Positions 3,261 through 43,190 of a DNA stretch of 45,227 nucleotides are shown piece by piece. The stretch is from NCBI RefSeq assembly GCF_004010195.1, contig NC_057718.1:591773-636999 (forward strand), read 5' to 3'. The notes beneath the pieces were generated by a model. It saw only the letters and a list, made by a program, of their open reading frames with translations, was not told the DNA's origin and did no database searches. The position numbers and the translations under genes were made by a program. The DNA comes from Chiloscyllium plagiosum (taxonomy: Eukaryota). Every line of letters begins with the position of its first letter. Position 1 is the first letter of the stretch.

Positions 3261-3269
3261 CAGTGTGGC

Positions 3270-6200
3270 AATCTTAGACTGGTGCAGTGACCACCTTGTC
3301 CTGAGGGGCGATCTCAGACTGGTGCAGTGACCACCTTGTCCTGAGGGGCGATCTCGAACTGGTGCAGTGACCACCTTGTCCTGAGGGGGGGCGATCTCGA
3401 ACTGGTGCAGTGACCACCTTGTCCTGAGGGGGGGCGATCTCGAACTGGTGCAGTGACCACCTTGTCCTGAGGGGTATTCTTAGACTAGTGCAGTGACCAC
3501 CTTGTCCTGTGGGGTGTTCTCAGACTAGTGCAGTGACCACCTTGTCCTGTGGGGTGTTCTCAGACTGGTGCAGTGACCACCTTGTCCTGAGGGGTATTCT
3601 TAGACTGGTGCAGTGACCACCTTGTCCTGAGGGGTATTCTCAGACTGGTGCAGTGACCACCTTGACCTGAGGGGGCGATCTCAAACTGGTGCAGTGACCA
3701 CCTTGTCCTGAGGGGTGTTTCGATTAGATTAGATTACATTACATTACAGCGTGGAAACAGTCCCTTCGGCCCAACAAGTCCACACCGACCCGCCGAAGCG
3801 CAACCCACCCTTTTCTCTACATTTACCCCTTACCTAACACTGTGAGCAATTTAGCATGGCTAATTCACCTGACCTGCACATCTTTTGGACTGTGGGAGGA
3901 AACCGGAGCACCCGGAGGAAACCCACGCAGACACGGGGAGAATGTGCAAACTCCACACAGTCAGTCACTTGAGGCGGGAATTGAACCCGGGTCTCAGGCG
4001 CTGTGAGGCAGCTGTGCTAACCACTGTGCCACCCACGTGTTCTCGGAGTGGTGCAGTGACCACATTGTCCTGGGGGAGGGGGCGATCCTGGACTAGTGCA
4101 GTGACCACCTTGTCCTCAGGAGGGCGATCTCGAACTGGTGCAGTGACCACCTTGTCCTGAGGGGTATTCTCGGACTGGTGCAGTGACCACCTTGTCTTGA
4201 GGGGGCGATCTTGGACTGGTGCAGTGACCACCTTGCCCTGAGGGGTGTTCTCGGACAGGTGTAGTGACCACCTTGTCCTGAGGGGTGTTCTCGGACAGGT
4301 GCAGTGACCACATTGTCCTGAGGGGTCTATCTCGGACTGGTGCAGTGACCACCTTGACTTGAGGGGGTGATCTCGGACTTGTCCTGAGGCGGGGTGTTCT
4401 CGGACTGGAGCCCAAGGGGCGATCTCGGACTGGTGCAGTGATCACCTTGTCCTGAAGGGGGGGGGAGCGATCTCGGACTGGTGCAGTGATCACCTTGTCC
4501 TGAAGGGGGTGAGCGATCTCGGGCTGGTGCAGTGACCACCTTGTTCTGAGGGGTCTTCTCGGACTGCTGCAGTGACCACATTGTCCTGAGGGGGGGGGGC
4601 GATCCGGACTGGTGCAGTGATCACCTTGTCCTGAGGGGCCGATCTCGGACTGGTGCATGACCACATTGTCCTGAGGGGGTCGATCTCGTACTGGTGCAGT
4701 GACCACTTTTCCTGAGGGGTCTTCTCGGACTGGTGCAGTGACAACATTGTCCTGAAGGGGCGATCTCAGACTGGTGCAGTGACCACCTTGTCCAGAGGGG
4801 TCTTCTCGGACTGGTGTAGTGACCACCTTGTCCTGAGGGGGAGCGATCTCGGACTGGTGCAGTGACCACCTTGTCCTGAGAGGGCGATCTCGGACTGGTG
4901 CAGTGACCACCTTGACCTGAGGGGTGTTCTCGGGCTGGTGCAGTGACCACATTGTCCTGAGGGGGCGATTTCGGATTGGTGCAGTGACCACCTTGTCCTG
5001 AGGGGTCTTCTCGGACTGGTGCAGTGACCACATCGTCCTGAGAGGTGTTCTTGGACTGGTGCAGTGACCACCTTGTCCTGAGGGGGGTATCACGGACTGG
5101 TGCAGTGACCACTTTGTCCTGAGGGGTGTTCTCGGACTGGTGCAGTGACCACCTCGTCCTGAGGGGTCGATCTCGGACTGGTGCAGTAACCACCTTGCCC
5201 TGAGGGGTGTTCTGGGACAGGTGCATCGACCACATTGACATGAGGGGGGCGATCTCGGACTGGTGCCGTGACCACTTTCTCCTGTGGGGTCTTCTCGGAT
5301 TTCTGCAGTGACCACCTTGTCCTGAGGGGTCGGTCTCGGACTGGTGCAGTGACCACCTTGTCCAGAGGGGTCGATTTCGGGACTGGTGCAGTGACCACCT
5401 TGTCCAGAAGGAGGCGATCTCGGAGTAGTGCAGTGACCACCTTGACCTGAGGGGTGTTCTCGGACCGTTGTAGTGACTACCTTGTCCTGAGAGGGCAATC
5501 TCAGACTGGTGCTGTGACCACCTTGTCCTGAGGGGGGCGGTTTCGGACTGGTGCAGTGACTACATTGTGCTGAGGGGGCGATGTCGGACTAGTGCAGTGA
5601 CCACCTTGTCCTGAGGAGGGCGATCTCGGACTGGTGCAGTGACCACCTTGTCTTGAGGGGGGATCTCGGACTGGTGCAGTGACCACCTTGTCTTGAGGGG
5701 GGATCTCAGACTGGTGCAGTGATCACCTTGTCCTGAGGGGGCGATCTCGGACTGGTGCCGTGACCACCTTGTCCTGAGGGAGGCAATCTCGGACTGGTGC
5801 AGTGACCACCTTGTCATGAGGGAGGCGATCTCGGACTGGCGCAGTGACGACATTGTCCTGAGGGGTCGATCTCGGACTGGTGCAATGACCACCTTGTCCT
5901 GAGGGGGGGCGATCTCGGCCTGGCGCAGTGACCACCTTGTCTAGAGGGTGGCGATTTTGGGACTTGTGCAGTGACCACCTTGTCCTGAAGGAGGCAATCT
6001 CGGACTAGTGCAGTGACCACCTTGACCTGAGGGGTGTTCTCGGACTGGTGCAGTGACCACCTTATCCTGAGAGGGCAATCTCAGACTGGTGCAGTGACCA
6101 CCTTGTCCAGAAGGAGGCAATCTCGGACTAGTGCAGTGACCACCTTGACCTGAGGGGTGTTCTCGGACTGGTGCAGTGACCACATTGTCCTGAGGGCTGT

Positions 6201-8209
6201 TCTCTCGGACTGGCGCAGTGACGACATTGTCCTGAGGGGTCGATCTCGGACTGGTGCAATGACCACCTTGTCCTGAGGGGGGGCGATCTCGGCCTGGCGC
6301 AGTGACCACCTTGTCTAGAGGGTGGCGATTTTGGGACTTGTGCAGTGACCACCTTGTCCTGAAGGAGGCAATCTCGGACTAGTGCAGTGACCACCTTGAC
6401 CTGAGGGGTGTTCTCGGACTGGTGCAGTGACCACCTTGTCCTTAGTGGGGTGCAATCTCAGACTGTTGCAGTGACCACCTTGTCCTGAGGGGGGGGGGCG
6501 ATCTCGGACTGGTGCAGTGACCAGCTTGTCCCGAGGGGGGGCGATCTCGGACTGGTGCAGTGACCACATTGTCCTGAGGAGGTGTGTTCTTGGACTGGTG
6601 CCGTGACCACCTTCTCCTGAGGGGTCTTCTCGGACTGGTGCAGTGACCACCTTGTCATGAGTGGGGCAATCTCAGACTGGTGCAGTGACCACCTTTTCCT
6701 GAGGGGTGTTCTCAGACTGGTGCAGTGACCACATTGTCCTGAGGAGGGCGATTTCGGACTGGTACAGTGACCACCTTGTCCTGAAGGAGGCGATCTCGGA
6801 CTGGTGCAGTCACCACCTTGTCCTGAGGGGTGCGATTTCGGACGGTTGCAGTGACCACATTGTGCTGAGGGGGCGATGTCGGATGAGTGCAGTGACCACC
6901 TTGTCCTGAGGTGACGTTCATGGACTGATGCAGTGACCACCTTGTCCTGAGTGGGAGGCGATCTCGGACTGGTGCAGTGACCAGCTTGTCCTGGGGGGGG
7001 GGTGTTCTTGGACTGGTACAATGACCACCCTGTCCCAAGGGGGTGAGATCTCGGACTGGTGCATTGACCACCTTGTCCTGAGGGGGCATTCTCGGACTGG
7101 TGCAGTGACCACCTTGTCCTGAGGGGTGATCGCAGACTGGTGCAGTGACCACCTTGTCCTGAGGGGGACGATCTTGGACTGGTGCAGTGACCACCTTGTC
7201 CTGAGGGGTCTTCTCGGACTGGTGTAGGGGGGGCGATCTCGGACTGGTGTAGTGACCACCTTGTCCTCTCGTGGGGTGATCACGGACTGGTGCAGTGACC
7301 ACCTTGTCCTGAGGGGGCCGATCCTATACTGGTGCAGTGACCACCTTGACCTGAGGGGTGTTCTCGGGCTGGTGCAGTGACCACATCGTCCTGAGAGGTG
7401 TTCTTGGACTGGTGCAGTGACCACCTTGTCCAGAGGGGTTGATTTCGGGACTGGTGCAGTGACCACCTTGTCCTGAGGGGGTTGTGCTCGAACTGGTGCA
7501 GTGACCACCTTGTCCTGAGGGGGGTGATTATGGACTGGTGCAGTGACCACATTGTGCTGAGGGGTCGATGTCGCACTAGTGCAGTGACCACCCTGTCCTG
7601 AGGAGGGCGATCTTGGACTGGTGCAGTAACCACCTTGTCCTGAGGGGTGTCCTGGGCCTGGTGCAGCGAGCACCTTGTCATGAGGGAGGCGATCTCGGAC
7701 TGGTGCAGTGACCACCTTCTCCTGTGGGGTCTTCTCGGATTACTGCAGTTACCACCTTGTCCTGAGGGGTCGATCTCGGACTGGTGCAGTGACCATCCTG
7801 TCCAGAAGGAGGCGATCTCGGACTAGTGCAGTGACCACCTTGACCTGAGAGGGCAATCTCAGACTGGTGCTGTGACCATCTTGTCCTGAGGGGGGTGGTT
7901 TCGGACTGGTGCAGTGACTACATTGTGCTGAGGGGGCGATGTCGGACTAGTGCAGTGACCACCTTGTCCTGAGGAGGGCGATCTTGGACTGGTGCAGTGA
8001 CCACCTTGTCCTGAGGGGCGATCTCGGACTGGTGCAGTGACCACCTTGTCCTGAGGGGCGTTCTCGGAATACTGCAGTGACCATATTGTCTTGAGGGGGG
8101 GGATCTCGGACTGGTGCAGTGACCACCTTGTCCTTAGTGGGGTGCAATCTCAGACGCAGTGACCACCTTGTCCTGAGGGGCGATCTCGGACTGGTGCAGT
8201 GACCACCTT
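3270..8209. repeat. GC-rich minisatellite, ~38-42 bp unit GACTGGTGCAGTGACCACCTTGTCCTGAGGGG(n)CGATCTCG, >100 copies
   Basis: Directly visible; unit length varies through a G-run; source of all QDKVVTAPVRDRP-type ORFs. Confidence 0.97.
3722..4036 (-). mobile_element. HE1-like tRNA-derived V-SINE inserted in the minisatellite
   Basis: Reverse complement has Pol III box A (TGGCACAGTGG), box B (GGTTCAATTCC), V-domain TGTGGAGTTTGCACATTCTCCCCGTGTCTGCGTGGG and (TAATC)n tail. Confidence 0.92.
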
Positions 8210-8210
8210 N

Positions 8211-11200
8211 ACACAGTTCTATAGTTGAGGAAACACAGTTCTATAACTGAGGAAACACTGTTCTATAGTTGAGGAAACACAGTTCTATAGTTGAGAAAAC
8301 ACAGTTCTATAGATGAGAAAACACAGTCCTATAACTGAGAAAACACAGTTCTATAGTTGAGAAAACACAGTCCTATAGTTGAGAAAACACTGTTCTATAG
8401 TTGAGAAAACACAGTTCTATAACTGAGAAAACACAGTCCTATAATTGAGAAAACACAGTCCTTTAACTGAGAAAACACAGTTCTATAGTTGAGAAAACAC
8501 AGTTCTATAACTGAGAAAACACAGTTCTATAGTTGAGAAAACACATTTCTATAACTGAGAAAACACAGTTCTATAGTTGAGAAAACACAGTCCTATAACT
8601 GAGAAAACACAGTTCTGTAGTTGAGAAAACACTGTTCTATAGTTTAGAAAACACAGTCCTATAACTGAGAAAACACAGTTCTATAGTTGAGAAAACACAG
8701 TCCTATAACTGAGAAAACACAGTTCTATAGTTGAGAAAACACAGTTCTAGAGCTGAGAAAACACAGTTCTATAGTTGAGAAAACACAGTTCTATAGCTGA
8801 GAAAACACAGTTCTATAACTGAGGGAACACTGTTCGATAGCTGAGAAAACACTGTTCTATAGTTGAGAAAACACTGTTCTATAGTTTAGAAAACACAGTC
8901 CGATAACTGAGAAAACACAGTTCTATAACTGAGATAACACAGTTCTATAACTGAGAAAACACAGTTCTATAGCTGAGAAAACAAAGTTCTATAGTTGAGG
9001 AAACACAGTTCTATAGCTGAGAAAACACAGCTCTATAGCTGAGAAAACACAGTTCTATAGCTGAGAAAACACAGTTCTATAGTTGAGGAAACACAGTTCT
9101 ATAGCTGAGAAAACACAGTTCTATAGCTGAGAAAACACAGTTCCATAGTTGAGGAAACACAGTTCTATAGCTGAGAAAACACAGTTCTATAGCTGAGAAA
9201 ACACAGTTCCATAGTTGAGGAAACACAGTTCTATAGCTGAGAAAACACTGTTCTATAGCTGAGAACACACTGTTCTATAGCTGAGAAAACACAGTTCTAT
9301 AGTTGAGGAAACACAGTTCTATAGCTGAGAAAACACAGTTCTATAGCTGAGAAAACACTGTTCTTTAGCTGAGAAAACACAGTTCTATAGCTGAGAAAAC
9401 ACTGTTCTATAGCTGAGAACACACTGTTCTATAGCTGAGAAAACACTGTTCTATAACTGAGAAAACACAGTCCTATAACTGAGAAAACACAGTTCTATAA
9501 CTGAGAAAACACAGTTCTATAGCTGAGAAAACACAGTTCTATAGCTGAGAAAACACTGTTCTATAGCTGAGAAAACAAGTTCTATAGTTGAGGAAACACA
9601 GTTCTATAGCTGAGAAAACACTGTTCTATAACTTAGAAAACACAGTTCTATAGCTGAGAAAACACAGTTCTATAGCTGAGAAAACACTGTTCTATAACTG
9701 AGAAAGCACAGTTCTATAGCTGAGAAAACACTGTTCTATAACTTAGAAAACACAGTTCTATAGCTGAGAAAACACAGTTCTATAGCTGAGAAAACATTGT
9801 TCTATAGCTGAGAAAACACTGCTCTATAGCTGAGAAAACACTGCTCTATAGCTGAGAAAACACAGTTCTATAGTTGAGGAAACACAGTTCTATAGCTGAG
9901 AAAACACTGTTCTATAGCTGAGAAAACACTGTTCTATAGCTGAGAAAACACAGTTCTATAGCTGAGAAAACACAGTTCTATAGTTGAGGAAACACAGTTC
10001 TGTAACTGAGGAAACACAGTTCTGTAGCTGAGAAAACACTTCTATAACTTAGGAAACACTGTTCGAGAGTTGAGGAAACACAGTTCTATAACTGAGAAAA
10101 CACTGTTCTATAGTTGAGAAAACACTGTTCTATAGTTGAGGAAACAATGTTCTATAGTTGAGGAAACACTGTTCTATAGTTGAGGAAACACTGTTCTATA
10201 GTTGAGGAAACACTGTTCTATAGTTGAGAAAACACTGTTCTATAGTTGAGAAAACACAGTTGTATAACTGAGGGAACACTGTTCGATAACTGGGGAAACA
10301 CAGTTCTATAACTGAGGAATCACAGAGCTATAGCTGCGGATGCACAGTTCTATAACTGAGGAAAGAGAGTTCAATAGCTGAGGAAATACAGTTTTATAAC
10401 TGAGGAAACTCAGTTCTATAGCTGAGGAAACAGGTGTATAACTGAGGAAACACTGTTCTATAACAGAGGAAACACAGTTCTATAACAGAGGAAACACAGT
10501 CAGAGGAAACACAGTTCTATAACAGAGGAAACACAGTTCTATAACAGAGGAAACACAGTTCTATATCTGAGGAAACACAGTTCTATAACAGAGGAAATAC
10601 TATTCTATAGTTGAGGAAACACAGTTCTATAACTGAGCAAACACTGTTCTATAGCTGAGGAAACACTGTTCTTTGGCTGAGGAAACACAGGTCTGTAGCT
10701 AAGGAAACAGTTATGTAACTGAGGAAATACTGTTCTGTAGCTGAGGAAACTCTGTTCAAAAGCTGAGGAAACACTGTTCTGGTAGCTGAGGAAACATTGT
10801 TCTATAGCTGAGGAAACACTGTTCTGTAACTGAGGAAACACAGATCTATAGTTGAGGAAATACTATTCTCTAGCGGAGGAAACACTTTTCTTTAGCTGAG
10901 GAAACACAGGTCGGTAGCTAAGGAAACACAGTTCTGTAACTGAGGAAACACAGTTCTATAGTTGAGGAAATACTGTTCTGTAGCTGAGGAAACACTGTTC
11001 AAAAGCTGAGGAAACACTGTTCTGGTAGCTGAGGAAACATTGTTCTATAGCTAAGGAAACACAGTTCTGTAACTGAGGAAACAGTTCTATAGTTGAGGAT
11101 ACATAGTTATGTAACTGAGGTAACACAGTTCTGTAGCTGTGGAAATACTGTTCTATAGCTGAGGAAACACAGGTCGGTAGCTAAGGAAACACAGGTCTGT

Positions 11201-12516
11201 AACTGAGGAAACACAGATCTATAGTTGAGGAAATACTGTTCTGTAGCTGAGGAAATTCTGTTCTACAGTTGAGGAAACACAGGTCGGTAGCTGAGGAAAC
11301 ACAGGTCTGTAACTGAGGAAACACAGTTCTATAGTTGAGGAAATACTGTTCTGTAGCTGAGGAACCTCTGCTCTATAGCTGAGGAAACAGAGTTCTGTAG
11401 CTGAGGAAATACTGTTCTCTAGCGGAGGAAACACAGGTCTGTAGCTGAGGAAACACATTTCTTTAGCTGAGGAAACACAGTTCTGTAGCTAAGGAAACAC
11501 AGTTCTATAACTGAGGAAACCCTGTTCTATAGCTGAGGAAACACAGTTCTGTAGCTGAGGGAACACAGTTCTATAACTAAGGAAGTAGTGTTCGATAGAT
11601 GAGGAAACACAGTTCTATAACTGAGGGAACACTGTTCGATAACTGGGTAAACACAGTTCTATAGCTGAGGAAACACAGTTCTATAACAGAGGAAACTCAG
11701 TTCTATATCTGAGGAAACACAGTTCTATAACAGAGGAAATACTATTCTATAGTTGAGGAAACACAGTTCTATAACTGAGCAAACACTGTTCTATAGCTGA
11801 GGAAACACTGTTCTTTAGCTGAGGAAACACTGTTCTTTAGCTGAGAAAACACAGTTCTTTAGCTGAGGGAACACTGTTCTGTGGCTGAGGGAACACTGTT
11901 CTGTGGCTGAGGGAACACAGTTCTGTAGCTGAGGAAACACTTTTCTTTAGCTGAGGAAACACAGTTCTATAGCTGGAAATGTGTTGCTGGAAAAGCGCAG
12001 CAGGTCAGGCAGCATCCAGGGAACAGGAGNNNNNNNNNNNNNNNNNNNNNNNNNNNNNNNNNNNNNNNNNNNNNNNNNNNNNNNNNNNNNNNNNNNNNNN
12101 NNNNNTTCTCCTCAAAGACAGTTCTATAGTTGAGGAAACACAGTTATGTAACTGAGAAAACACAGTTCTGTAGCTGTGGAAACACAGGTCTGTAACTGAG
12201 GAAACACAGATCTATAGTTGAGGAAATACTATTCTCTAGCGGAGGAAACACTTTTCTTTAGCTGAGGAAACACAGGTCGGTAGCTAAGGAAACACAGTTA
12301 TGTAACTGAGGAAACACAGTTCTATAACTGAGGAAACCCTGTTCTATAGTTGAGGAAACACAGTTCTATAACTGAGGAAACACTGGTCTGTAGCTGTGGA
12401 AACTCTGTTCAACAGTTGAGGAAACACACTTCTGGTAGCTGAGGAAACACTGTTCTCTAGCTGAGGAAACACAGCTCTATAGCTGAGAAAACACAGTTCT
12501 ATAGCTGAGGAAACAG
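8211..12516. repeat. 22-bp minisatellite ACACAGTTCTATAGCTGAG(G/A)AA, roughly 190 visible copies, runs into an N gap
   Basis: Directly visible; 22-aa periodicity in minus ORFs (3 x 22 bp) agrees. Confidence 0.97.
11975..12115. mobile_element. Penelope-derived terminal-repeat element in the 22-bp array, centre lost in N gap
   Basis: ATGTGTTGCTGGAAAAGCGCAGCAGGTCAGGCAGCATCCAGGGAACAGGAG identical to the arm at 37012-37062; TTCTCCTCA after the gap matches the element end at 42681-42689. Confidence 0.75.
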
Positions 12517-13023: not shown

Positions 13024-13385
13024 GAAACAGAGTGAAAGAAAAAACAGAGTGAAAGAGAAACAGTGTGAAAGGAATTCATACTGAAACAGAAACCGATTGC
13101 TAGAGAAACCTAGTGCCAGAGAAACCGAATGAAAGAGAAACTAAGTGCCAGAGAAACAGACTGAAACAGAAACAGACTGAAAGAGAAAGAGCGTGCCAGA
13201 GAAACCGAGTCAAAGAGAAACCGAGTGCCAGAGAAACCGAGCAAAAGGGAAACTGAGTGTAGGAGAAACTGAGTGAAAGAGAAACTAAGTGAAAGAGAAA
13301 CAGTTTGAAACAGAAAGAGAGTTATTCAGAAATGGTGTGAAAGAAAGAGAGTGAAAGAGAAACAGAATGCTGGGGAAACAGAGTG
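13024..13385. repeat. Purine-rich degenerate ~16-17 bp repeat (GAAACAGAGTGAAAGA)
   Basis: Directly visible. Confidence 0.85.
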
Positions 13386-13499
13386 AGGTACGGCATCATT
13401 CAGTCTTTGATGTTGAGGGATGAGGAGATACCTAACTCAAGGACTATCGCCCAAAACCTTGCTGCTCTGTGGAATCCATAGTCGGACAAAAAGTGTTCC

Positions 13500-14175: not shown

Positions 14176-14488
14176 CTGTAAACAGAAGAGGGAGCGAGAC
14201 TCTGACTCAGAGACAAAAAAACTGCAGATGCTGGAATCCAAAGTAGACAGGCTGGAGGCTGATGCTGCCTGGCTTGCTATGTTCATCACTTTTTAATTCA
14301 TTCATTTATTCATTGAAACTTCCCTCCAGCTGAGTCCCAGAGCAGCCAGAGATAAACCCACAGATACAAAACACATAGAAAAAGGGAGTTAAACACATCT
14401 CAATGGATTCACCACTAATAGAACAGAGACCCCAGGAAAGACACACAAACATAGAAACACACACTAGTGCATACACTTGTATACATTA

Positions 14489-14657
14489 TGATTTGGAGAT
14501 GCCGGTGTTGGAGTGGAGTGTACAAAGTTAAAAATCACACAACACCAGGTTATAGTCCAGCAGGGACTATCACCTGATGAAGGAGCGTCGCTCCGAAAGC
14601 TAGTGTGCTTCCAATTAAACCTGTTGGATTATAACCTGGTGTTGTGTGATTTTTAAC
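14489..14657 (+). mobile_element. Hairpin-shaped Penelope-derived insertion with 13-bp flanking direct repeat
   Basis: ~45-bp inverted arms (14520-14564 / ~14620-14665); CTTGTATACATTA at 14476-14488 and 14658-14670. Confidence 0.8.
14571..14605 (+). ncRNA. Minimal type I hammerhead ribozyme motif
   Basis: CAC-CTGATGA-A-GGAGC-gtc-GCTCC-GAAA-GCTA-GTG: both catalytic boxes, 5-bp stem II, 3-bp stem I, palindromic AGCT in place of stem III. Confidence 0.8.
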
Positions 14658-15065
14658 CTTGTATACATTAGCACACAAACACAGCTATAAACACATAGTG
14701 ATGGTTCTACAGAGATAGACACACTCATAAAAACAGAGACAGAAACACACACAAATACAGAGGAACACACACATGCAGACACACACAGAAACACACAAAC
14801 AAATACAAACACACGGTCACAGGCTCGCACTGAGACACAGACACTTACATACAGAGAAACATAGAAACATACAATCACAGACATACACACACATAGGGAT
14901 AGACACACTGACGGAATCAGAGAGAAACACATATAGAAACAGAGACAAATACAGGAACACAGAGGCACTCAGAGAAACATACAGATATACTGACACAGAG
15001 AGACATGGAGAGAGAGAGAGAAGGTTTCTGGGTCTCTCTCCCAAATGCTGCTGTCTGTGTTTAAT

Positions 15066-19604: not shown

Positions 19605-22600
19605 GAGTAATTGTGCCTTAGTGTCCAGGGATGTGCAGGTTAGGGTGGATTGGCTATGCTAAATTACCCATAGTGCTTAGTAATGTGCAGGTTAAGGTGG
19701 ATTGATCGTGCTAAATTGTTCCAAAGTGCCCAAGGATGTGCAGGTTAAAGTGGATTGGTTATGCTAGATTGTCCATAATGTCCAGGATGTTCAGTTTAGG
19801 GTGGATTGGCCTTGCTGAATTGTCCTGTTTTGCCCCAGGTCTGCGCAGATTAGGGAGGATTGGCCATGTTTAATTTGTCCCATAGTCTTCAGGGATATAT
19901 CGGTTAGAGTGGATGGGCCATGTTAAATTACCCATAGTGCTCAGAGATGTGCAGTTTAGTCTGGATTGGCCATGCTAAATTGCCCCATAGTATCCAGGGA
20001 TGGGCAGGTTAGACTGAATTGCCCATAATAAATTGTCCCATAGTGCCTAATGACGTGCAGGTTAGGGTGGATTGGTAATGCTAAATTGCCCATTGTGTCC
20101 AGAGATGTGCAGGTTATTGTGGATTGACTGTGTTAAATTACCCATAGTGTCCAGAATGTGCAGGTTAGGGTGGATTGACCAGGCTAAATTACCCCGTAGC
20201 ATCCAGGGATTTGCAAGTTAGGGCGGATTGGCTATATTAAATTATCCAGGTAAAACAAGGGCTGCAGATGCTGGAAGCCAGATTCTAGATTAAAGTGGTG
20301 CTGGAAAAGCACAGCAGTTCAGGCAGCATCCGAGGAGCAGGAAAATCGACGTTTTGGGCAAAAGCCCTTCATCAGGAATGTGCCCTTCCTGATGAAGGGC
20401 TTTTGCCCAAAACGTCGATTTTCCAGCTCCTCGGATGCTGCCTGAACTGCTGTGCTTTTCCAGCACCACTTTAATCCATATTAAATTATCCATAATGCCC
20501 AGGGATATGCAGGTTAGGATAGATTTGTTGCGCTAAGTTGTCCCATAGTGCCCAGGGATGAGCAGGTTAGGGTGGATTGGCCATGCTAAATTACCCCCTG
20601 GTGTTCAGGGATGTGTAGGTTAGGGTGGATTGGCCATTCTAAATTATTCATAGTGACCAGGGATGTGTAGTTTAGGGTGGATTAGCCATGCTATATTACC
20701 CCATGGTGTTCAGGGATGTGTAGGTTAGGGTGGATTAGCCATGCTATATTACCCCATGGTGTTCAGGGATGTGTAGGCTAGGGTGGATTAGCCATGCTAT
20801 ATTACCCATAGTGCCCAGGGAAGTGCAGGTTAGTGTGAATTGGTCATGCTAAATTACCCGTAGTGCCCAGGGAAGTGCAGGTTAGGGTGGATTGACCATG
20901 CTAAATTACCCATAGAGCCCAGGGAAGTGCAGGTTAGGGTGGATTGACAATGCTAAATTACCCGTAGAGTCCAGGGAAGTGCAGGTTAGGGTGGATTGAC
21001 CATGCTAAATTACTCAGAGTGTCCAGCGAAGTGCAGGTTAGGGTGGATTGGTCATGCTAAATTATCCATAGTGCACAGGGAAGTGCAGGTTAGGGTGGAT
21101 TGACCATGCTAAATTACCCATAGAGCCCAGGGAAGTGCAGGTTAGGGTGGATTGACAATGCTAAATTACTCATAGAGTCCAAGAAAGTGCAGGTTAGGGT
21201 GGATTGACCATGCTAAATTACCCATAGTGCACAGGGAAGTGCAGGTTAGGTTGGATTGACCATGCTAAATTACTCATAGTGCACAGGGAAGTGCAGGTTA
21301 GGGTGGATTGACCATGCTAAATTACTCATAGTGTCCAGGATTTGCAGGTTAGGGTGGATTGACCATGCTAAATTACTCATACTGTCCAGGATTTGCAGGT
21401 TAGAGTGGATTGACCATGCTAAATTACTCATAGAGTCCAAGAAAGTGCAGGTTAGGGTGGATTGACCATGCTAAATTACCCATAGAGTCCAGGGAAGTGC
21501 AGGGTAGGGTGGATTGACCATGCTAAATTACCCATAGAGTCCAGGGAAGTGCAGGTTAGGGTGGATTGGTTATGCTAAGTAATCCATAATACCCAGGAAT
21601 GTGCAGGTTCGGGTGGGTTGGCCATGCTAAATCGTCCCGTTGTGTCAAGGGATATGTAGATTTAGCTGCATTGGTTATTCTAAGTTACCCATAGTGCCCG
21701 GGTATGTGAAGGCTAGGGTGGAATGTTCATGCTGAGTTGTCCCATAGTGCCCATGGATGTGCAGGTTAGGGTGGATTGACCATACTAAATTACCCATAGT
21801 GCCCATGGATGTGCAGGTTAGGGTGGATTGACCATGCTAAATTGTCTCCTAGTGTTCAGGGATAATTAGGTTAGGGTGGATTGACCATGCTAAATTACCC
21901 TATGGTTTTCAGCAAAGTGTAGGTTAGGGTGGATCGGCCATGCTAAATTACCCATAGTGCCTGGAAATGTGCAGTTTAGGGTGGGTTGGCCATGCTAAAT
22001 TCTCCCATAGTGTCCAGGGATGTGCAGGTTTAGTTGCATTGGCTATTCTAAATTACCCATAGTGCCCCAGTATGTGAAGGTTAGGGTGGATTATTCATAC
22101 TAAATTGTCCCATAGTGCCCAAGAAAATGCAGGTTAGAGTGGAGTGGCCATGTTAAATTACCCAGAGTCCAGGGAAGTGCAGATTATGGTGGATTGATTA
22201 TGCTAAATAATCCATAGTGCCCAGGATTGCGCACATTCAGGTGGGTTGGTCATGCTACATTGTCTTGTAATGTTCGGGGATATGTAGGTTAGGGTAGATT
22301 GACCATGCTAAATTCCCCTATGGTGTTCAAGCATGTGTAGGTTAGGGTGGATTAGCAATACTAAATTATTCATAGTGCCCAGGGATGTGTAGGTTAAACT
22401 GGATTGGCCTTGCTAAATTACCCCATGGTGTTCAGGGATGTGTAGGTTTGGGTAGACTGGCCACGCTAAATTGTCCCGTAGTGCCCAGGGATGTGTAATT
22501 TAGGAAGGATTGGCTGTGCTAAATTGTTCTGTAGCTTTCAGGGATATGTAGGTTAGGGTAGATTGACCATGCCAAATTACCCCATGGTGTTCAGACATGT

Positions 22601-22884
22601 ATAGGTTAGGGTGGATTGGCAATACTACATTACCCATAGTGCCCAGGGATGTGCAGGTTAGGCTGGATTAGCCATGCTAAATTATTCATAGTGACCAGGG
22701 AGGGTGGAGTCGCCAGGCTAAATTGTCCCATAATGTCCAGGGATATGCAGTTTAGACTGGATTGGCCACGATAAATTAACCCATGGTTTTCAGGGATGTG
22801 TAGGTTAGGGTGGATTAGCCATGCTAAATTAGCAATAGTGCCCAGGGAAGTGTAGGTTACGGTGGGTTGGCCATGCTCAATTGT
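19605..22884. repeat. 52-bp minisatellite derived from the HE1 SINE core, ~55-60 copies
   Basis: Unit CCATAGTGCCCAGGGATGTGCAGGTTAGGGTGGATTGGCCATGCTAAATTAC aligns to SINE segment 16765-16821. Confidence 0.95.
20249..20477. mobile_element. Palindromic Penelope-derived insertion with two back-to-back hammerhead-like boxes
   Basis: ~90-bp arms (one mismatch seen) around TGTGCCC; 15-bp duplication ATATTAAATTATCCA at 20234-20248 and 20478-20492. Confidence 0.88.
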
Positions 22885-23543: not shown

Positions 23544-23632
23544 ATTCCTGATGAAGGGTTTTTGCCCGAAACATCAATCTCCTGCTCCTTGGATGCTGTC
23601 TGACCCACTGTGCTTTTCCAGCAACACTCTCC
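23544..23632 (+). mobile_element. Penelope-derived end with hammerhead core
   Basis: CTGATGA(23548-54)-A-GGGT-tttt-GCCC-GAAA-CATC; ACGT palindrome decayed to ACAT. Confidence 0.7.
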
Positions 23633-26574: not shown

Positions 26575-27535
26575 GTGTACTATATACCTTATACTGTACA
26601 CCTTATACTGTACACCTTATACTGTACACCTTATACTATACACCTTATACTGTATACCTTATACTATACACCTTATACTTTACACCTTATACTATACAAC
26701 TTATACTGTGCACGTTATACTGTACACCTTATACTGTACACCTTATACTATACATCTTATACTATACACCTTATACTGTACACGTTATACTGTACACCTT
26801 ATACTGTACACCTTATACTATATATCTTATACTATACACCTTATACTGTACTCCTTATACTATACACCTTATACTGTATGCCTTATACTATACACCTTAT
26901 ACTATACACCTTATACTGTACACCTTATACTGTACACCTTATACTGTATACCTTTTACTGTACACCTTATACTGTACACCTTATACTATACACCTTATAC
27001 TGTATACCTTATACTATACACCTTATACTATACACCTTATACTGCACACCTTATACTGTACACCTTATACTATACACCTTATGCTGTATACCTTATACTA
27101 TACACCTTATACTATACAACTTATACTGTACACGTTATACTGTACACCTTATACTGTACATCTTATACTATACATCTTATACTATACACCTTATACTGTA
27201 CACGTTATACTGTACACCTTATACTATACGTCTTATACTGTACACCTTATACACCTTATACTATACACCTTATACTGTACACCTTATATTATACACCTTA
27301 TACTGTACATCTTATACTGTACACCTTATACTGTACACCTTATACTATGCATCTTATACTGTACACCTTATACCAAACACCTTATACTATACATCTTATA
27401 CTGTACACCTTATACTGTACACCTTATACTATACATCTTATACTATACACCTTATACTATACACCTTATACACCTTATACTATACAACTTATACTATACA
27501 ACTTATACTGTACACCTTATACTATATACCTTACA
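26575..27535. repeat. 14-bp minisatellite TATACT(G/A)TACACCT inside the Rex1 RT
   Basis: Directly visible; lies between EGCVFS and HDCVVKF of RT motif B. Confidence 0.96.
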
Positions 27536-28040
27536 CTTTCATGACTGTGTGGTCAAATTCAGCTCGAACTCCATTTACAAATTTGCTAATGACACCACTG
27601 TAGTGGGTCAGAACTCAAATGACGACAAGACAGAGTAGAAGAAGGGGACAGACAGCTTAGTGGCATGGTGTAAACACAACACGCTGTCCCTCAATGTCAG
27701 GAAGCAGAGTGAACACGCTCCTGCCTGTATAAATTGTGCTGAGGTGGAGCTGGTCGAGTGCTTTAAGCTCCAAGGAGTAAACATCACCAATGATCTACTT
27801 CCTCATTAGGCCAAGGAAATTTGGCATGTCCACAAGGACTCTTACTAATTTTACAGATGTACTATAGAAAGGAACCTATCCAGATGCATCACAGCTTGTT
27901 ATGCCAACAGCTCTGCCCAGGAACACAGGAAATTACAGAATGTTAAGATCACAACCCAGTCCATTTCAAAAACCAGACTTCGTTCCATTGACCCCACCTC
28001 CACATCCCACTGCCTCAGGGAAACAGCCAACATCATCAAT

Positions 28041-38629: not shown

Positions 38630-39470
38630 ACACTTCAGGACACACAACAATGCAGAGCTGCCAGAGACTCATCACCATGTTCAGTACCCATGAGGATGGC
38701 CTCAACCGGGGTATTGGGTTCATGTCACACTACAGATGACTCCGCCACACTACACACTCAGACGCATACTCATACACATGGACACACACGCGCACACTCA
38801 CACAAACACACTCACACAGGCCTTCTCTCATACACACACACACTCACTCACTCTCTCATAGGCATATAATCTCTGATACTGGTGCACAGTGTCTCTCAAA
38901 CACAGGCTCTCACACACATATACAGTACTCCCTCACACACACCCTCCCTCCTTCTCCCACACATACATACACACCTACATCCTCTGACACACAATGCACT
39001 CTCTCCCTTGCAAATCTATGGGGTGAAATTGCAGTTTTGAATTTGCAGGTACATTTAATTTTATTCAAAAAGTACACAATCTGCAGACAGTCAACGTGTC
39101 ATTTTATAAATTCCTACTTTGAAAATAACATCAGTCTAGCTCCAGGATGAGATACGAACAGACTTGAAACGTGGTCTCACCTAAAATGCTTTGTCTGACG
39201 TGACCTTTATTCTGATAAAACCTGATATTATATTGGGGCAGGGGTTTATCTATTAATGCACCTCCATTCTAACTCATTAAAGACTTAATAGCTATCTAGG
39301 TTAATTCAATACATTTGCATAAGTTCTATGACCCTTTGATCTTTCACTATAAATTCTGTGTGCGATGTATTCTCTCTCAGTAGCTGCATGGGGAAGGAGA
39401 AGGCGCTCCGCAATCTTACGGTTTCACATTAAACCGGTGTGGGACTTTTCACTTTGTCAAGTCTAACACC
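38630..39470 (+). mobile_element. Penelope-like element 3' end (GIY-YIG C-terminus, CA-rich tract, decayed terminal repeat)
   Basis: QRLITMFSTHEDGLNRGIGFMSHYR* with the GLN motif; GAAGGAGAAGGCGCTCCGCAATCTT at ~39392 is a decayed version of the 14578-14602 box. Confidence 0.65.
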
Positions 39471-41854: not shown

Positions 41855-43190
41855 AGCATGATTTCCTTTTAACAAAACCATATTGGCTCTGCTTGATTAT
41901 CTTAAACTTATCCAAGTGCCCTATTATAATATCTTTAATCACAGCTTCTAACATTTTCCTATGAATGGATTACTGTGTGCAGTTCTGGTTATCACACTGT
42001 TGGAAGGATTGGAGTGCAGAGGAGATTAACCGTAGTGTTGCCTGGGATGGAAAGCCTCAGTTATGAGGAGAGACTGGATTTGTTGTTGTCTCCAAGCAGT
42101 GAACTAATCGAGTGGTTTGACCCAGTGTTACATTGTTACCGTTTCTGAGTACACTTGGTGCTGGTAATTATCCTGCTTTTGACTCTTAAAGGTATACCCA
42201 CATCTTCATAACATAAGCCAGTACTCTGTCTTCACTTTGGAAAAGAAGGGTGTAGGTACAGAATTTGGGAAGATGGGCTGTGAGGTTCTTCATGTTGACA
42301 TTGACAGTAAGGAGATATCGGTGGTTTTGGCAGGCTTGAAAGTGGTCAGGTCCCTAGATCGGGATCAGCTGTCAGAGGTGTAGAAGGAAATGACAGGGAT
42401 TCTGATTCAAGTTTTTAATTCCTCTTTGGCTACAGAGGGGGTGCCAGAGGACTCGAGGGCAGCTAATGTAGTTCTACTTTTCTGGTAGGGTTAAACCAGG
42501 GAACTACGGGTAGGGAAACTAATTCATTTTTGCAATAGTCTCTACTTGGAGAGGCAAATGGCTGAAGAAGGGCTTATGCCCGAAACGTCGATTCTCCTGT
42601 TCCCTGGATGCTGCCTGACCTGCTGCGCCTTTCCAGCAACACATTTTCAGCTCTGATCTCCAGCATCTGCAGACCTCACTTTCTCCTCAATGTGGAGTTC
42701 ATCCAAGCCTTTGGCCAGTCCCATATGGGCGCCTCATAAAGAAGGTAAAAGCACATGGGATCCAGGGGACTTGTCAAGATGAATGCATCATTGGTTTATG
42801 GTAGGAGATGGAATATGGGGGTGGGGGAAAACATGAGTTTGGCCACATGGTTAATTGAACAAAGAAGAACAGTATGTCACAGGAACGGGCGCTTCGGCCC
42901 TCCAATTATGTGCCAACACATTCTCCCCTTCTGTACTAAAACTGTCTTCACTTACAGGATCTGTCTACCTTGATTCCCTTCCTATCCATGTATTTGTTCA
43001 GGTGCTTCTTGAAGGCTGCTATTGTGTCTGGTTTCACCACCTCCTCTGGCAACATGTTCCAGAAACTTGCCACCCTTTGTGTGAAAAACTTGTCTCATAA
43101 ATCTGTTTTAAACCTCTGCCATCCGCACCTTGAACCTGTATTCCTGAGTAATTGACCCCTCCAACTGGGAAAAAGCCTTCTACCGTTTCT
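41855..43190. mobile_element. Old CR1 fragments in both orientations
   Basis: YCVQFWLSH..LPGMESLSYEERLD, GVPEDSRAANVVLLF and tail remnants. Confidence 0.6.
42562..42689 (+). mobile_element. Penelope-derived end starting at an intact hammerhead core
   Basis: CTGAAGA-A-GGGC-ttat-GCCC-GAAA-CGTC (42562-42589) followed by the full family 3' sequence; stem I partner appears truncated. Confidence 0.85.

Follow-up and report, generated by a model that had tools for sequence, protein, structure and literature searches.

The hammerhead-bearing insert found at positions 14489-14657 of the window, by which we mean the whole 45,227-nt stretch of Chiloscyllium plagiosum DNA that was analysed, was very probably left behind, as a non-coding by-product, when an endonuclease-bearing Penelope-like element (PLE) of a shark-type genome retrotransposed. 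Two partial copies of a unit of ~130 nt make up the insert, placed head to head, one on each strand. Both the hallmarks of PLE insertions and the minimal hammerhead ribozymes (min-HHRs) are already published. What may be new is the position of the 5' ends of the arms, which pile up ~8 nt before the ribozyme and 30 nt after a TATAAA, with 1 of 67 ends at the predicted cleavage site.

Structure and surroundings of the insert

The insert is 169 nt long and hairpin-shaped, and it lies within 14476-14670 of the window. We numbered the unit V1-V130 on the hammerhead strand, with V1 at 14566. On this numbering the CUGAUGA box starts at V9 (14574, + strand), the predicted cut falls at V37/V38 (14602/14603, +) and the sense arm ends at V92 (14657, +). 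Reading from the left, a 13-bp target-site duplication (14476-14488) is followed by the antisense arm, V130-V55 (14489-14564, - strand). This arm begins with a 38-nt tail, V130-V93 (14489-14526, -), that is present at the left end of the insert only, and its remainder, V92-V55 (14527-14564, -), forms the left arm of the inverted repeat. A single G between the arms (14565, +), at a position where the long copies have C, is followed by the sense arm, V1-V92 (14566-14657, +), which lacks the tail and has the family's common 5' end as its start. The right copy of the target-site duplication (14658-14670, 13 bp) closes the structure.

A repeat search of the window confirmed the outline given by an earlier reading of the sequence only, namely a ~170-bp hairpin insertion with ~45-bp arms and a flanking 13-bp direct repeat. 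The direct repeat, CTTGTATACATTA, is present at 14476-88 and 14658-70 in two copies that are 100% identical and 182 nt apart from start to start, and the inverted arms (14518-14564 and 14620-14666) are 47 nt long, 91% complementary and 55 nt apart. The first 9 nt of the right duplication agree with V93-V101 at 7 of 9 positions, and the BLAST alignment of the insert to the unit extends past the sense arm, to 14666. The RNA of the 169-nt insert is predicted to form a single long hairpin (-80.5 kcal/mol, z = -11.1), in the loop of which helix II is paired.

A natural 217-bp copy (L027) was compared with the insert by BLAST. Of the 92 nt of the sense arm 1 was mismatched, and of the 76 nt of the antisense arm 3, which makes 4 in 168 nt over both arms; within its family the insertion is accordingly a young one. 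That the motif sits in the hairpin loop is due solely to the end of the antisense arm at V55; in the longest short forms, of 217 bp, the motif is found on both strands. The idea of a small element with a ribozyme built into its hairpin loop was consequently given up, since the arm junction varies from copy to copy and the hairpin is made of two inverted partial copies.

The surroundings of the insert, ~0.6 Mb from the start of the contig, are satellite-rich and AC-rich. Minisatellite arrays occupy 3267-8209 (unit 40 bp), 8211-11975 (22 bp), 12114-12515 (22 bp), 13024-13386 (16 bp), 19609-22882 (units of 52/105 bp) and 26578-27537 (14 bp) of the window. A weak match on the + strand at 38685-38818 (73% over 139 nt) to the region 538-670 nt upstream of the unit in a long copy, L035, is possibly an internal PLE fragment.

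The hammerhead motif in the window

The minimal type I hammerhead motif extends over 14571-14605 on the + strand, with predicted cleavage between 14602 and 14603. By sequence reading, all its parts are present on this strand: a helix I of 3 bp (14571-73 pairing with 14603-05), the CUGAUGA box (14574-80), a single unpaired A (14581), a helix II of 5 bp (GGAGC at 14582-86 and GCUCC at 14590-94, around a 3-nt loop at 14587-89), GAA at 14595-97 (GAAA box 14595-98), the AGCU palindrome (14598-14601) and A17 (14602), the position before the predicted cut. The completeness of the motif that had been reported earlier thus holds, and the predicted cut after 14602 is correctly placed, A17 being 14602. 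With up to 3 mismatches allowed, the window contains a single occurrence of the 32-nt motif, against 0.00 expected from 100 shuffles.

The min-HHRs of PLEs, in those parts of PMC4209133 that define them, have an unpaired base between positions 9 and 10.1, a G10.1-C11.1 pair, a palindromic 15.2-16.2 and a short helix I. The window motif has the CUGANGA and GAAA boxes of the core with H (not G) at position 17 (A, 14602). A 14581 is unpaired while GGAGC and GCUCC pair, and helix II is part of the predicted fold. The place of helix III is taken by A15.1-U16.1 and the palindromic 15.2-16.2, that is, AGCU at 14598-14601. Within the published rules as given there, its assignment to the PLE minimal type, with helix III replaced by an AGCU palindrome, is therefore upheld. 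The Rfam hammerhead models gave no match at gathering score in the whole window and none at E <= 10 in 14400-14750, so the motif is not recognized by the canonical type I model; this silence would be explained by the real helix III that the models expect.

An AGCU monomer cannot close a loop of 2 nt, and helix III can therefore be built only by a dimer. No second AGCU-type motif was found in the window in a search at up to 3 mismatches. Of the earlier reading, the PLE link stands, given the reverse transcriptase (RT)/endonuclease frame described below; for a dimer, the window offers no second motif of this type. A predicted dimer fold of the loop RNA was uninformative on dimer cleavage, as the self-complementary strands of helix II paired between the molecules and a hammerhead dimer was not formed. 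For a lone motif with no helix III and no AGCU-type partner in the window, cleavage at 14602/14603 is not to be expected, and the motif, complete but solitary, is most likely inert. The min-HHRs of PLEs are described as having low activity in vitro (PMC4209133, in part), and PLE hammerheads as working as dimers, and slowly (PMC6765202, in part).

Two further minimal hammerheads, of a different repeat family, are present in the window at 23548-23590 (+) and 42562-42600 (+). Their helix II is GGGY/GCCC and their helix III dinucleotide is CG or a decayed CA. They have ~100 nt of similar downstream sequence in common, and no inverted arm of at least 20 nt was found near them.

Copies of the unit in the genome

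The genome searched was the C. plagiosum assembly (3.56 Gb in 101,977 contigs). A pattern search for the exact 32-nt motif gave 3457 + 3334 = 6,791 occurrences, with 0 + 0 for the reversed control, and the exact 3' anchor V61-V92 gave 13,658 + 13,606 = 27,264, with 0 for its reversed control. The genome-wide search that had been suggested earlier thus confirmed the motif in 6,791 exact copies.

Three samples of copies were read. For the similarity sample the insert was used as query, and 854 first-look candidates yielded 97 scored matches, the best of which was 94% identical to the insert; 30 copies were read with their flanks. Each of the 30 had flanks and a flanking duplication of its own and contained the unit twice, head to head, and the arm junction was different in almost every one. 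The motif-anchored sample comprised 60 loci and took in 66 of the 76 places that head the list for the exact motif; the 10 places left out make up five long-range pairs (L032-L036, L038). The 3'-anchored sample comprised 40 loci, covering 46 of the first 48 places of V61-V92, two places in L032 being omitted. Both anchored samples were drawn from the beginning of a single contig and admit only exact 32-mer matches, and are therefore biased to young copies. Arm ends were taken from BLAST and are accurate to a few nt.

For the fold-back statistics, 130 short loci gave 91 fold-back pairs, 86 of them with sufficient flank. An exact duplication of at least 8 bp was present in 60 of the 86, compared to 1 of 86 in the control with mismatched flanks. 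Duplication lengths ranged from 3 to 24 bp with the mode at 11-13 bp, and the duplications listed were AT-rich by eye. The 38-nt tail V93-V130 was confined to one end in 80 of the 86 pairs, as often on the left as on the right (40 each); 6 pairs lacked it, and no pair had it at both ends. We also considered that the arm bearing the tail might be the truncated arm, and dropped this idea after a hand tally of ~15 for and 9 against.

Among the motif-reaching arms of the 3'-anchored sample, 15 of 50 passed all the motif rules, which places the window copy in an intact minority. Helix II varies in a way that looks like decay rather than covariation. Some motif pairs lie on opposite strands, 1-5 kb apart in the pattern search, and L035 is one of these. 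Among the matches listed, 0 of 100 motif places had a partner on the same strand within 1 kb, and all 7 close pairs were arranged minus then plus. With these figures, and with one motif in the window, head-to-tail tandem units of the retrozyme type were seen neither at the locus nor in the places listed.

L012 (small contig C30420) and L013 (C3) are a single insertion that appears on two contigs with the same flanks, which probably reflects a haplotig or a duplicate in the assembly. In L124 (C1:3864000-3868200) several fold-back copies are clustered within 2.6 kb, two neighbours having the same arm coordinates and one apparent flank repeat being 24 bp long, which suggests local duplication.

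A long copy with a reverse transcriptase frame

The unit was linked to coding sequence through L035, the sole coding long copy that was read. The inverted arms of L035 measure 630 bp, and its sense frame contains a reverse transcriptase with the motif YIDD. Pfam RVT_1 matched at L035 3067-4122 (E 1.9e-8, 34.7 bits versus a cut-off of 29.6), which identifies an RT domain. The RT is followed by a CxxC...H...H stretch, a GIY-YIG-like stretch, ~580 bp and then the unit with its tail; the frame upstream of these ~580 bp is decayed, being broken by one stop and by frame shifts. The GIY-YIG signal on L035 itself is weak and below the Pfam cut-off (E 0.045, 14.5 bits, in the inverted fragment), and the Pfam GIY-YIG search of the sense fragment gave no hit. 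Sequence searches against PDB were marginal, both for the endonuclease piece (best match T4 endonuclease II, E 0.31) and for the RT piece (E 0.65).

The relatives of the frame are more informative. Shark proteins with RVT_1, DUF8422 and HTH_animal were retrieved, 15 of them at E <= 1e-5 among 812 candidates, and a language-model atlas placed the RT piece of L035 with RT/HTH_animal clusters. The endonuclease piece aligns with residues 620-693 of the protein P0015 (E 1e-10), almost wholly inside the Pfam GIY-YIG domain of this protein at residues 630-714 (28.4 bits versus a cut-off of 22.6); the RVT_1 of P0015 itself is below the cut-off (24.7 versus 29.6). The same piece aligns with the C-terminus of the 881-aa protein P0008 (60% identity, E 2e-36), downstream of its RVT_1 domain. 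PLEs have this architecture, an RT with a GIY-YIG endonuclease C-terminal to it (PMC8557442, in part; PMC11167929). The RVT_1 match of L035 and the homology of its endonuclease piece thus support the proposed tie of the ribozyme family to a PLE-type RT/endonuclease frame, as judged from protein comparisons. When the whole genome was searched for Pfam GIY-YIG, 14,403 first-look candidates, of which 150 were scored, gave one short match on a small contig and no parent element.

Long copies run on upstream of the unit into the pseudo-LTR (pLTR) and coding sequence; a partial tandem of the form pLTR-ORF-pLTR is absent at the window locus. Between the inverted arms of L035, a tandem array at 2050-2715 gives long repetitive open frames in all six frames. 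One further protein, P0011, a whale-shark 'probable G-protein coupled receptor 139', matched the PLE linker with 63% identity over 54% of the query, and its gene model has probably absorbed a PLE fragment.

The 5' ends of the arms

In the 3'-anchored sample, 34 of 67 arm 5' ends fell at V-4..V10, a density of 2.27 per nt; 16 fell at V11-34, 12 upstream of V-4, and 1 at V35-41, around the predicted cleavage site. The pile-up is ~8 nt upstream of the ribozyme and 30 nt downstream of a conserved TATAAA, which was present in 31 of the 40 arms that continue upstream, 24 times at -30 and 7 times at -32. In the long copies this TATAAA precedes V1; from the short copies it is missing. In some single insertions, such as L040, L049 and L098, the border with foreign DNA falls exactly at V1. 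Because of the TATAAA 30 nt upstream in the long copies, V1 is probably a transcription start, as far as DNA alone can indicate. The Penelope element of D. virilis is described as having a TATA-less internal promoter (PMC2377424, in part), and so the TATA arrangement is not general.

A G before V1, as in the window copy, was found in 25 of the 26 copies most like it, and in 13/30 and 4/15 in the other two samples. This extra G is ambiguous between a cap-derived nucleotide and a remnant of the hairpin turn. A turn at V2, which is C, would likewise give G, and the extra G is therefore only a hint of cap copying; we had considered it as proof, and downgraded it in view of the proportions in the wider samples.

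Comparison with known elements

The closest published likeness is to the min-HHRs of metazoan PLE pseudo-LTRs (Cervera and de la Pena 2014, PMC4209133). As they are presented in the sections of that paper used here, they are alike in the type I topology and the CUGANGA/GAAA boxes, in the unpaired base 9/10.1, the G10.1-C11.1 pair, the reduced helix III and the short helix I. They are reported as dispersed, solitary copies, with opposite-strand pairs 100-700 bp apart, and the shark motifs resemble them in this too, with thousands of dispersed, mostly solitary copies and some opposite-strand neighbours. Helix II has 5 bp here and 7-8 bp in the Schistosoma families of the same sections.

The insertions themselves can be compared with those of endonuclease-positive PLEs (Craig et al. 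2021, PMC8557442, in part; Frangieh et al. 2024, PMC11167929). The former describes a neighbouring copy that is inverted and 5'-truncated, together with a tail of 30-40 bp, often at one end only (PMC8557442). The window insert is like these insertions in its head-to-head inverted partial copy, in the one-sided 30-40-bp tail and variable target duplications of the family, and in its repeat-rich, AC-rich site; its arms, in contrast, are extremely short (76 + 92 nt) and without pLTR or ORF. In the anole PLE, both target strands are cut and extended, and reverse transcription starts from two adjacent internal sites, which define the tail (PMC11167929). The two start points ~35 nt apart proposed here match these two sites. 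Initiation in the anole system is not homologous to the cut DNA, whereas at the window locus target and template match at 7 of 9 nt, a microhomology at the tail-less end. The anole element has an ORF starting at helix II; here the ATG in the CUGAUGA box runs into a stop 8 codons later. Self-cleavage of the anole hammerhead is protein-assisted, ribozyme mutants leave insertion unaffected, and no RNA-seq reads starting at the cleavage site were found (PMC11167929).

Non-LTR retrozymes (Cervera and de la Pena 2020; Li et al. 2026, preprint), in the portions of these accounts considered, are likewise short, non-coding, hammerhead-bearing and related to PLE pLTRs. They differ in their head-to-tail repeats of the hammerhead, which give circular RNAs. 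Such repeats were found neither at the window locus nor at the sampled places, so that a dimeric ribozyme in cis is lacking and it is not obvious how a circular RNA could arise. The word 'shark' has no occurrence in the available text of PMC8557442 or of the 2026 preprint (one chondrichthyan sampled), supplements aside, and our literature searches found no paper on this shark hammerhead family, again supplements aside.

Alternative explanations

Perhaps the ~130-nt unit is itself a propagating non-autonomous element, SINE-like or retrozyme-like, with its own transcription, mobilised in trans by PLE enzymes and having the hairpin as its normal form. Such a unit would account for the discrete 5' end at V1 (34/67 arms), for the very high copy numbers (6,791 motifs and 27,264 anchors) and for the G before V1 in 25/26 of the copies most like the window copy. 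We nevertheless regard it as unlikely. The junctions differ in nearly every copy, so the hairpins arise anew with each insertion and are not inherited. The TATAAA is upstream of V1 and is not carried by the short copies, which also speaks against the tiny non-autonomous element of the sequence-only reading. There are no head-to-tail arrays (0/100 listed motif places with a same-strand partner within 1 kb), and the long copies extend upstream into pLTR and coding sequence.

The inverted arms of 47 nt and the flanking direct repeat are also what a MITE moved by a transposase would have, in which case the hammerhead-like string would be a coincidence. The left inverted repeat is not terminal, however, as 29 nt of tail lie outside it; the length of the duplication is not fixed (3 to 24 bp, mode 11-13), the arm lengths vary among copies, and in L035 the unit is contiguous with the RT/endonuclease frame. 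A MITE is therefore very improbable. A further alternative is a self-cleaving ribozyme that was recruited by the host and functions locally at the window locus. The motif is complete here, whereas only 15/50 arms of the 3'-anchored sample pass all the rules, but it is intact because the insert is young, with 4 mismatches in 168 nt versus the natural copy L027. It is identical to 6,790 other copies, the insert sits among satellite arrays, and the window has no partner motif for helix III; recruitment by the host is thus extremely unlikely.

Proposed origin and significance

For a by-product of PLE retrotransposition, which remains the reading that we favour, the following course of events can be proposed. 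Both nicked strands of the target would prime reverse transcription of the element RNA, at two internal start sites on the template, one at ~V92-V100 and one at V130. At the window locus one cDNA would begin near V92, where the target equals V93-V101 at 7/9 nt, and overlaps of this kind are found in several other copies; the second would begin flush at V130. One of the cDNAs would reach the 5' end of the RNA (V1, 14566) and the other would halt at V55, after which the two cDNA 3' ends would be joined and then filled in. The short units would accordingly be run-off copies of a capped leader, made on RNA that the ribozyme had left uncut.

Extended to the whole family, this leads to a tentative proposal, to which we give somewhat less than an even chance: that the short end fragments of PLEs, which number tens of thousands in this genome, are run-off cDNAs of the capped 5' leader and not random 5' truncations. 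The leader would start at V1, 30 nt past the TATAAA and 8 nt before the hammerhead, and RT would begin internally at ~+92-100 or +130 and run off the 5' end of the RNA. If this is true, every unit-length transcript would give a dead copy of 92 or 130 nt, often as a fold-back, and the hammerhead would have been uncut in the copied RNAs, given the 1/67 arm ends at the cleavage site. The strict rule that the tail is found at one end and never at both is still without a mechanism.

The motif in the window is one of thousands of identical copies scattered by a known class of retroelement, and is probably inert. The copy ends give no sign that ribozyme-cut RNA served as template, in keeping with what was found in vitro for the anole element (PMC11167929), and they suggest that the RNA has a defined 5' end shortly before the ribozyme. 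What the finding adds is modest and methodological, in that the ends of dead copies, in their thousands, show which RNA was the template of reverse transcription.
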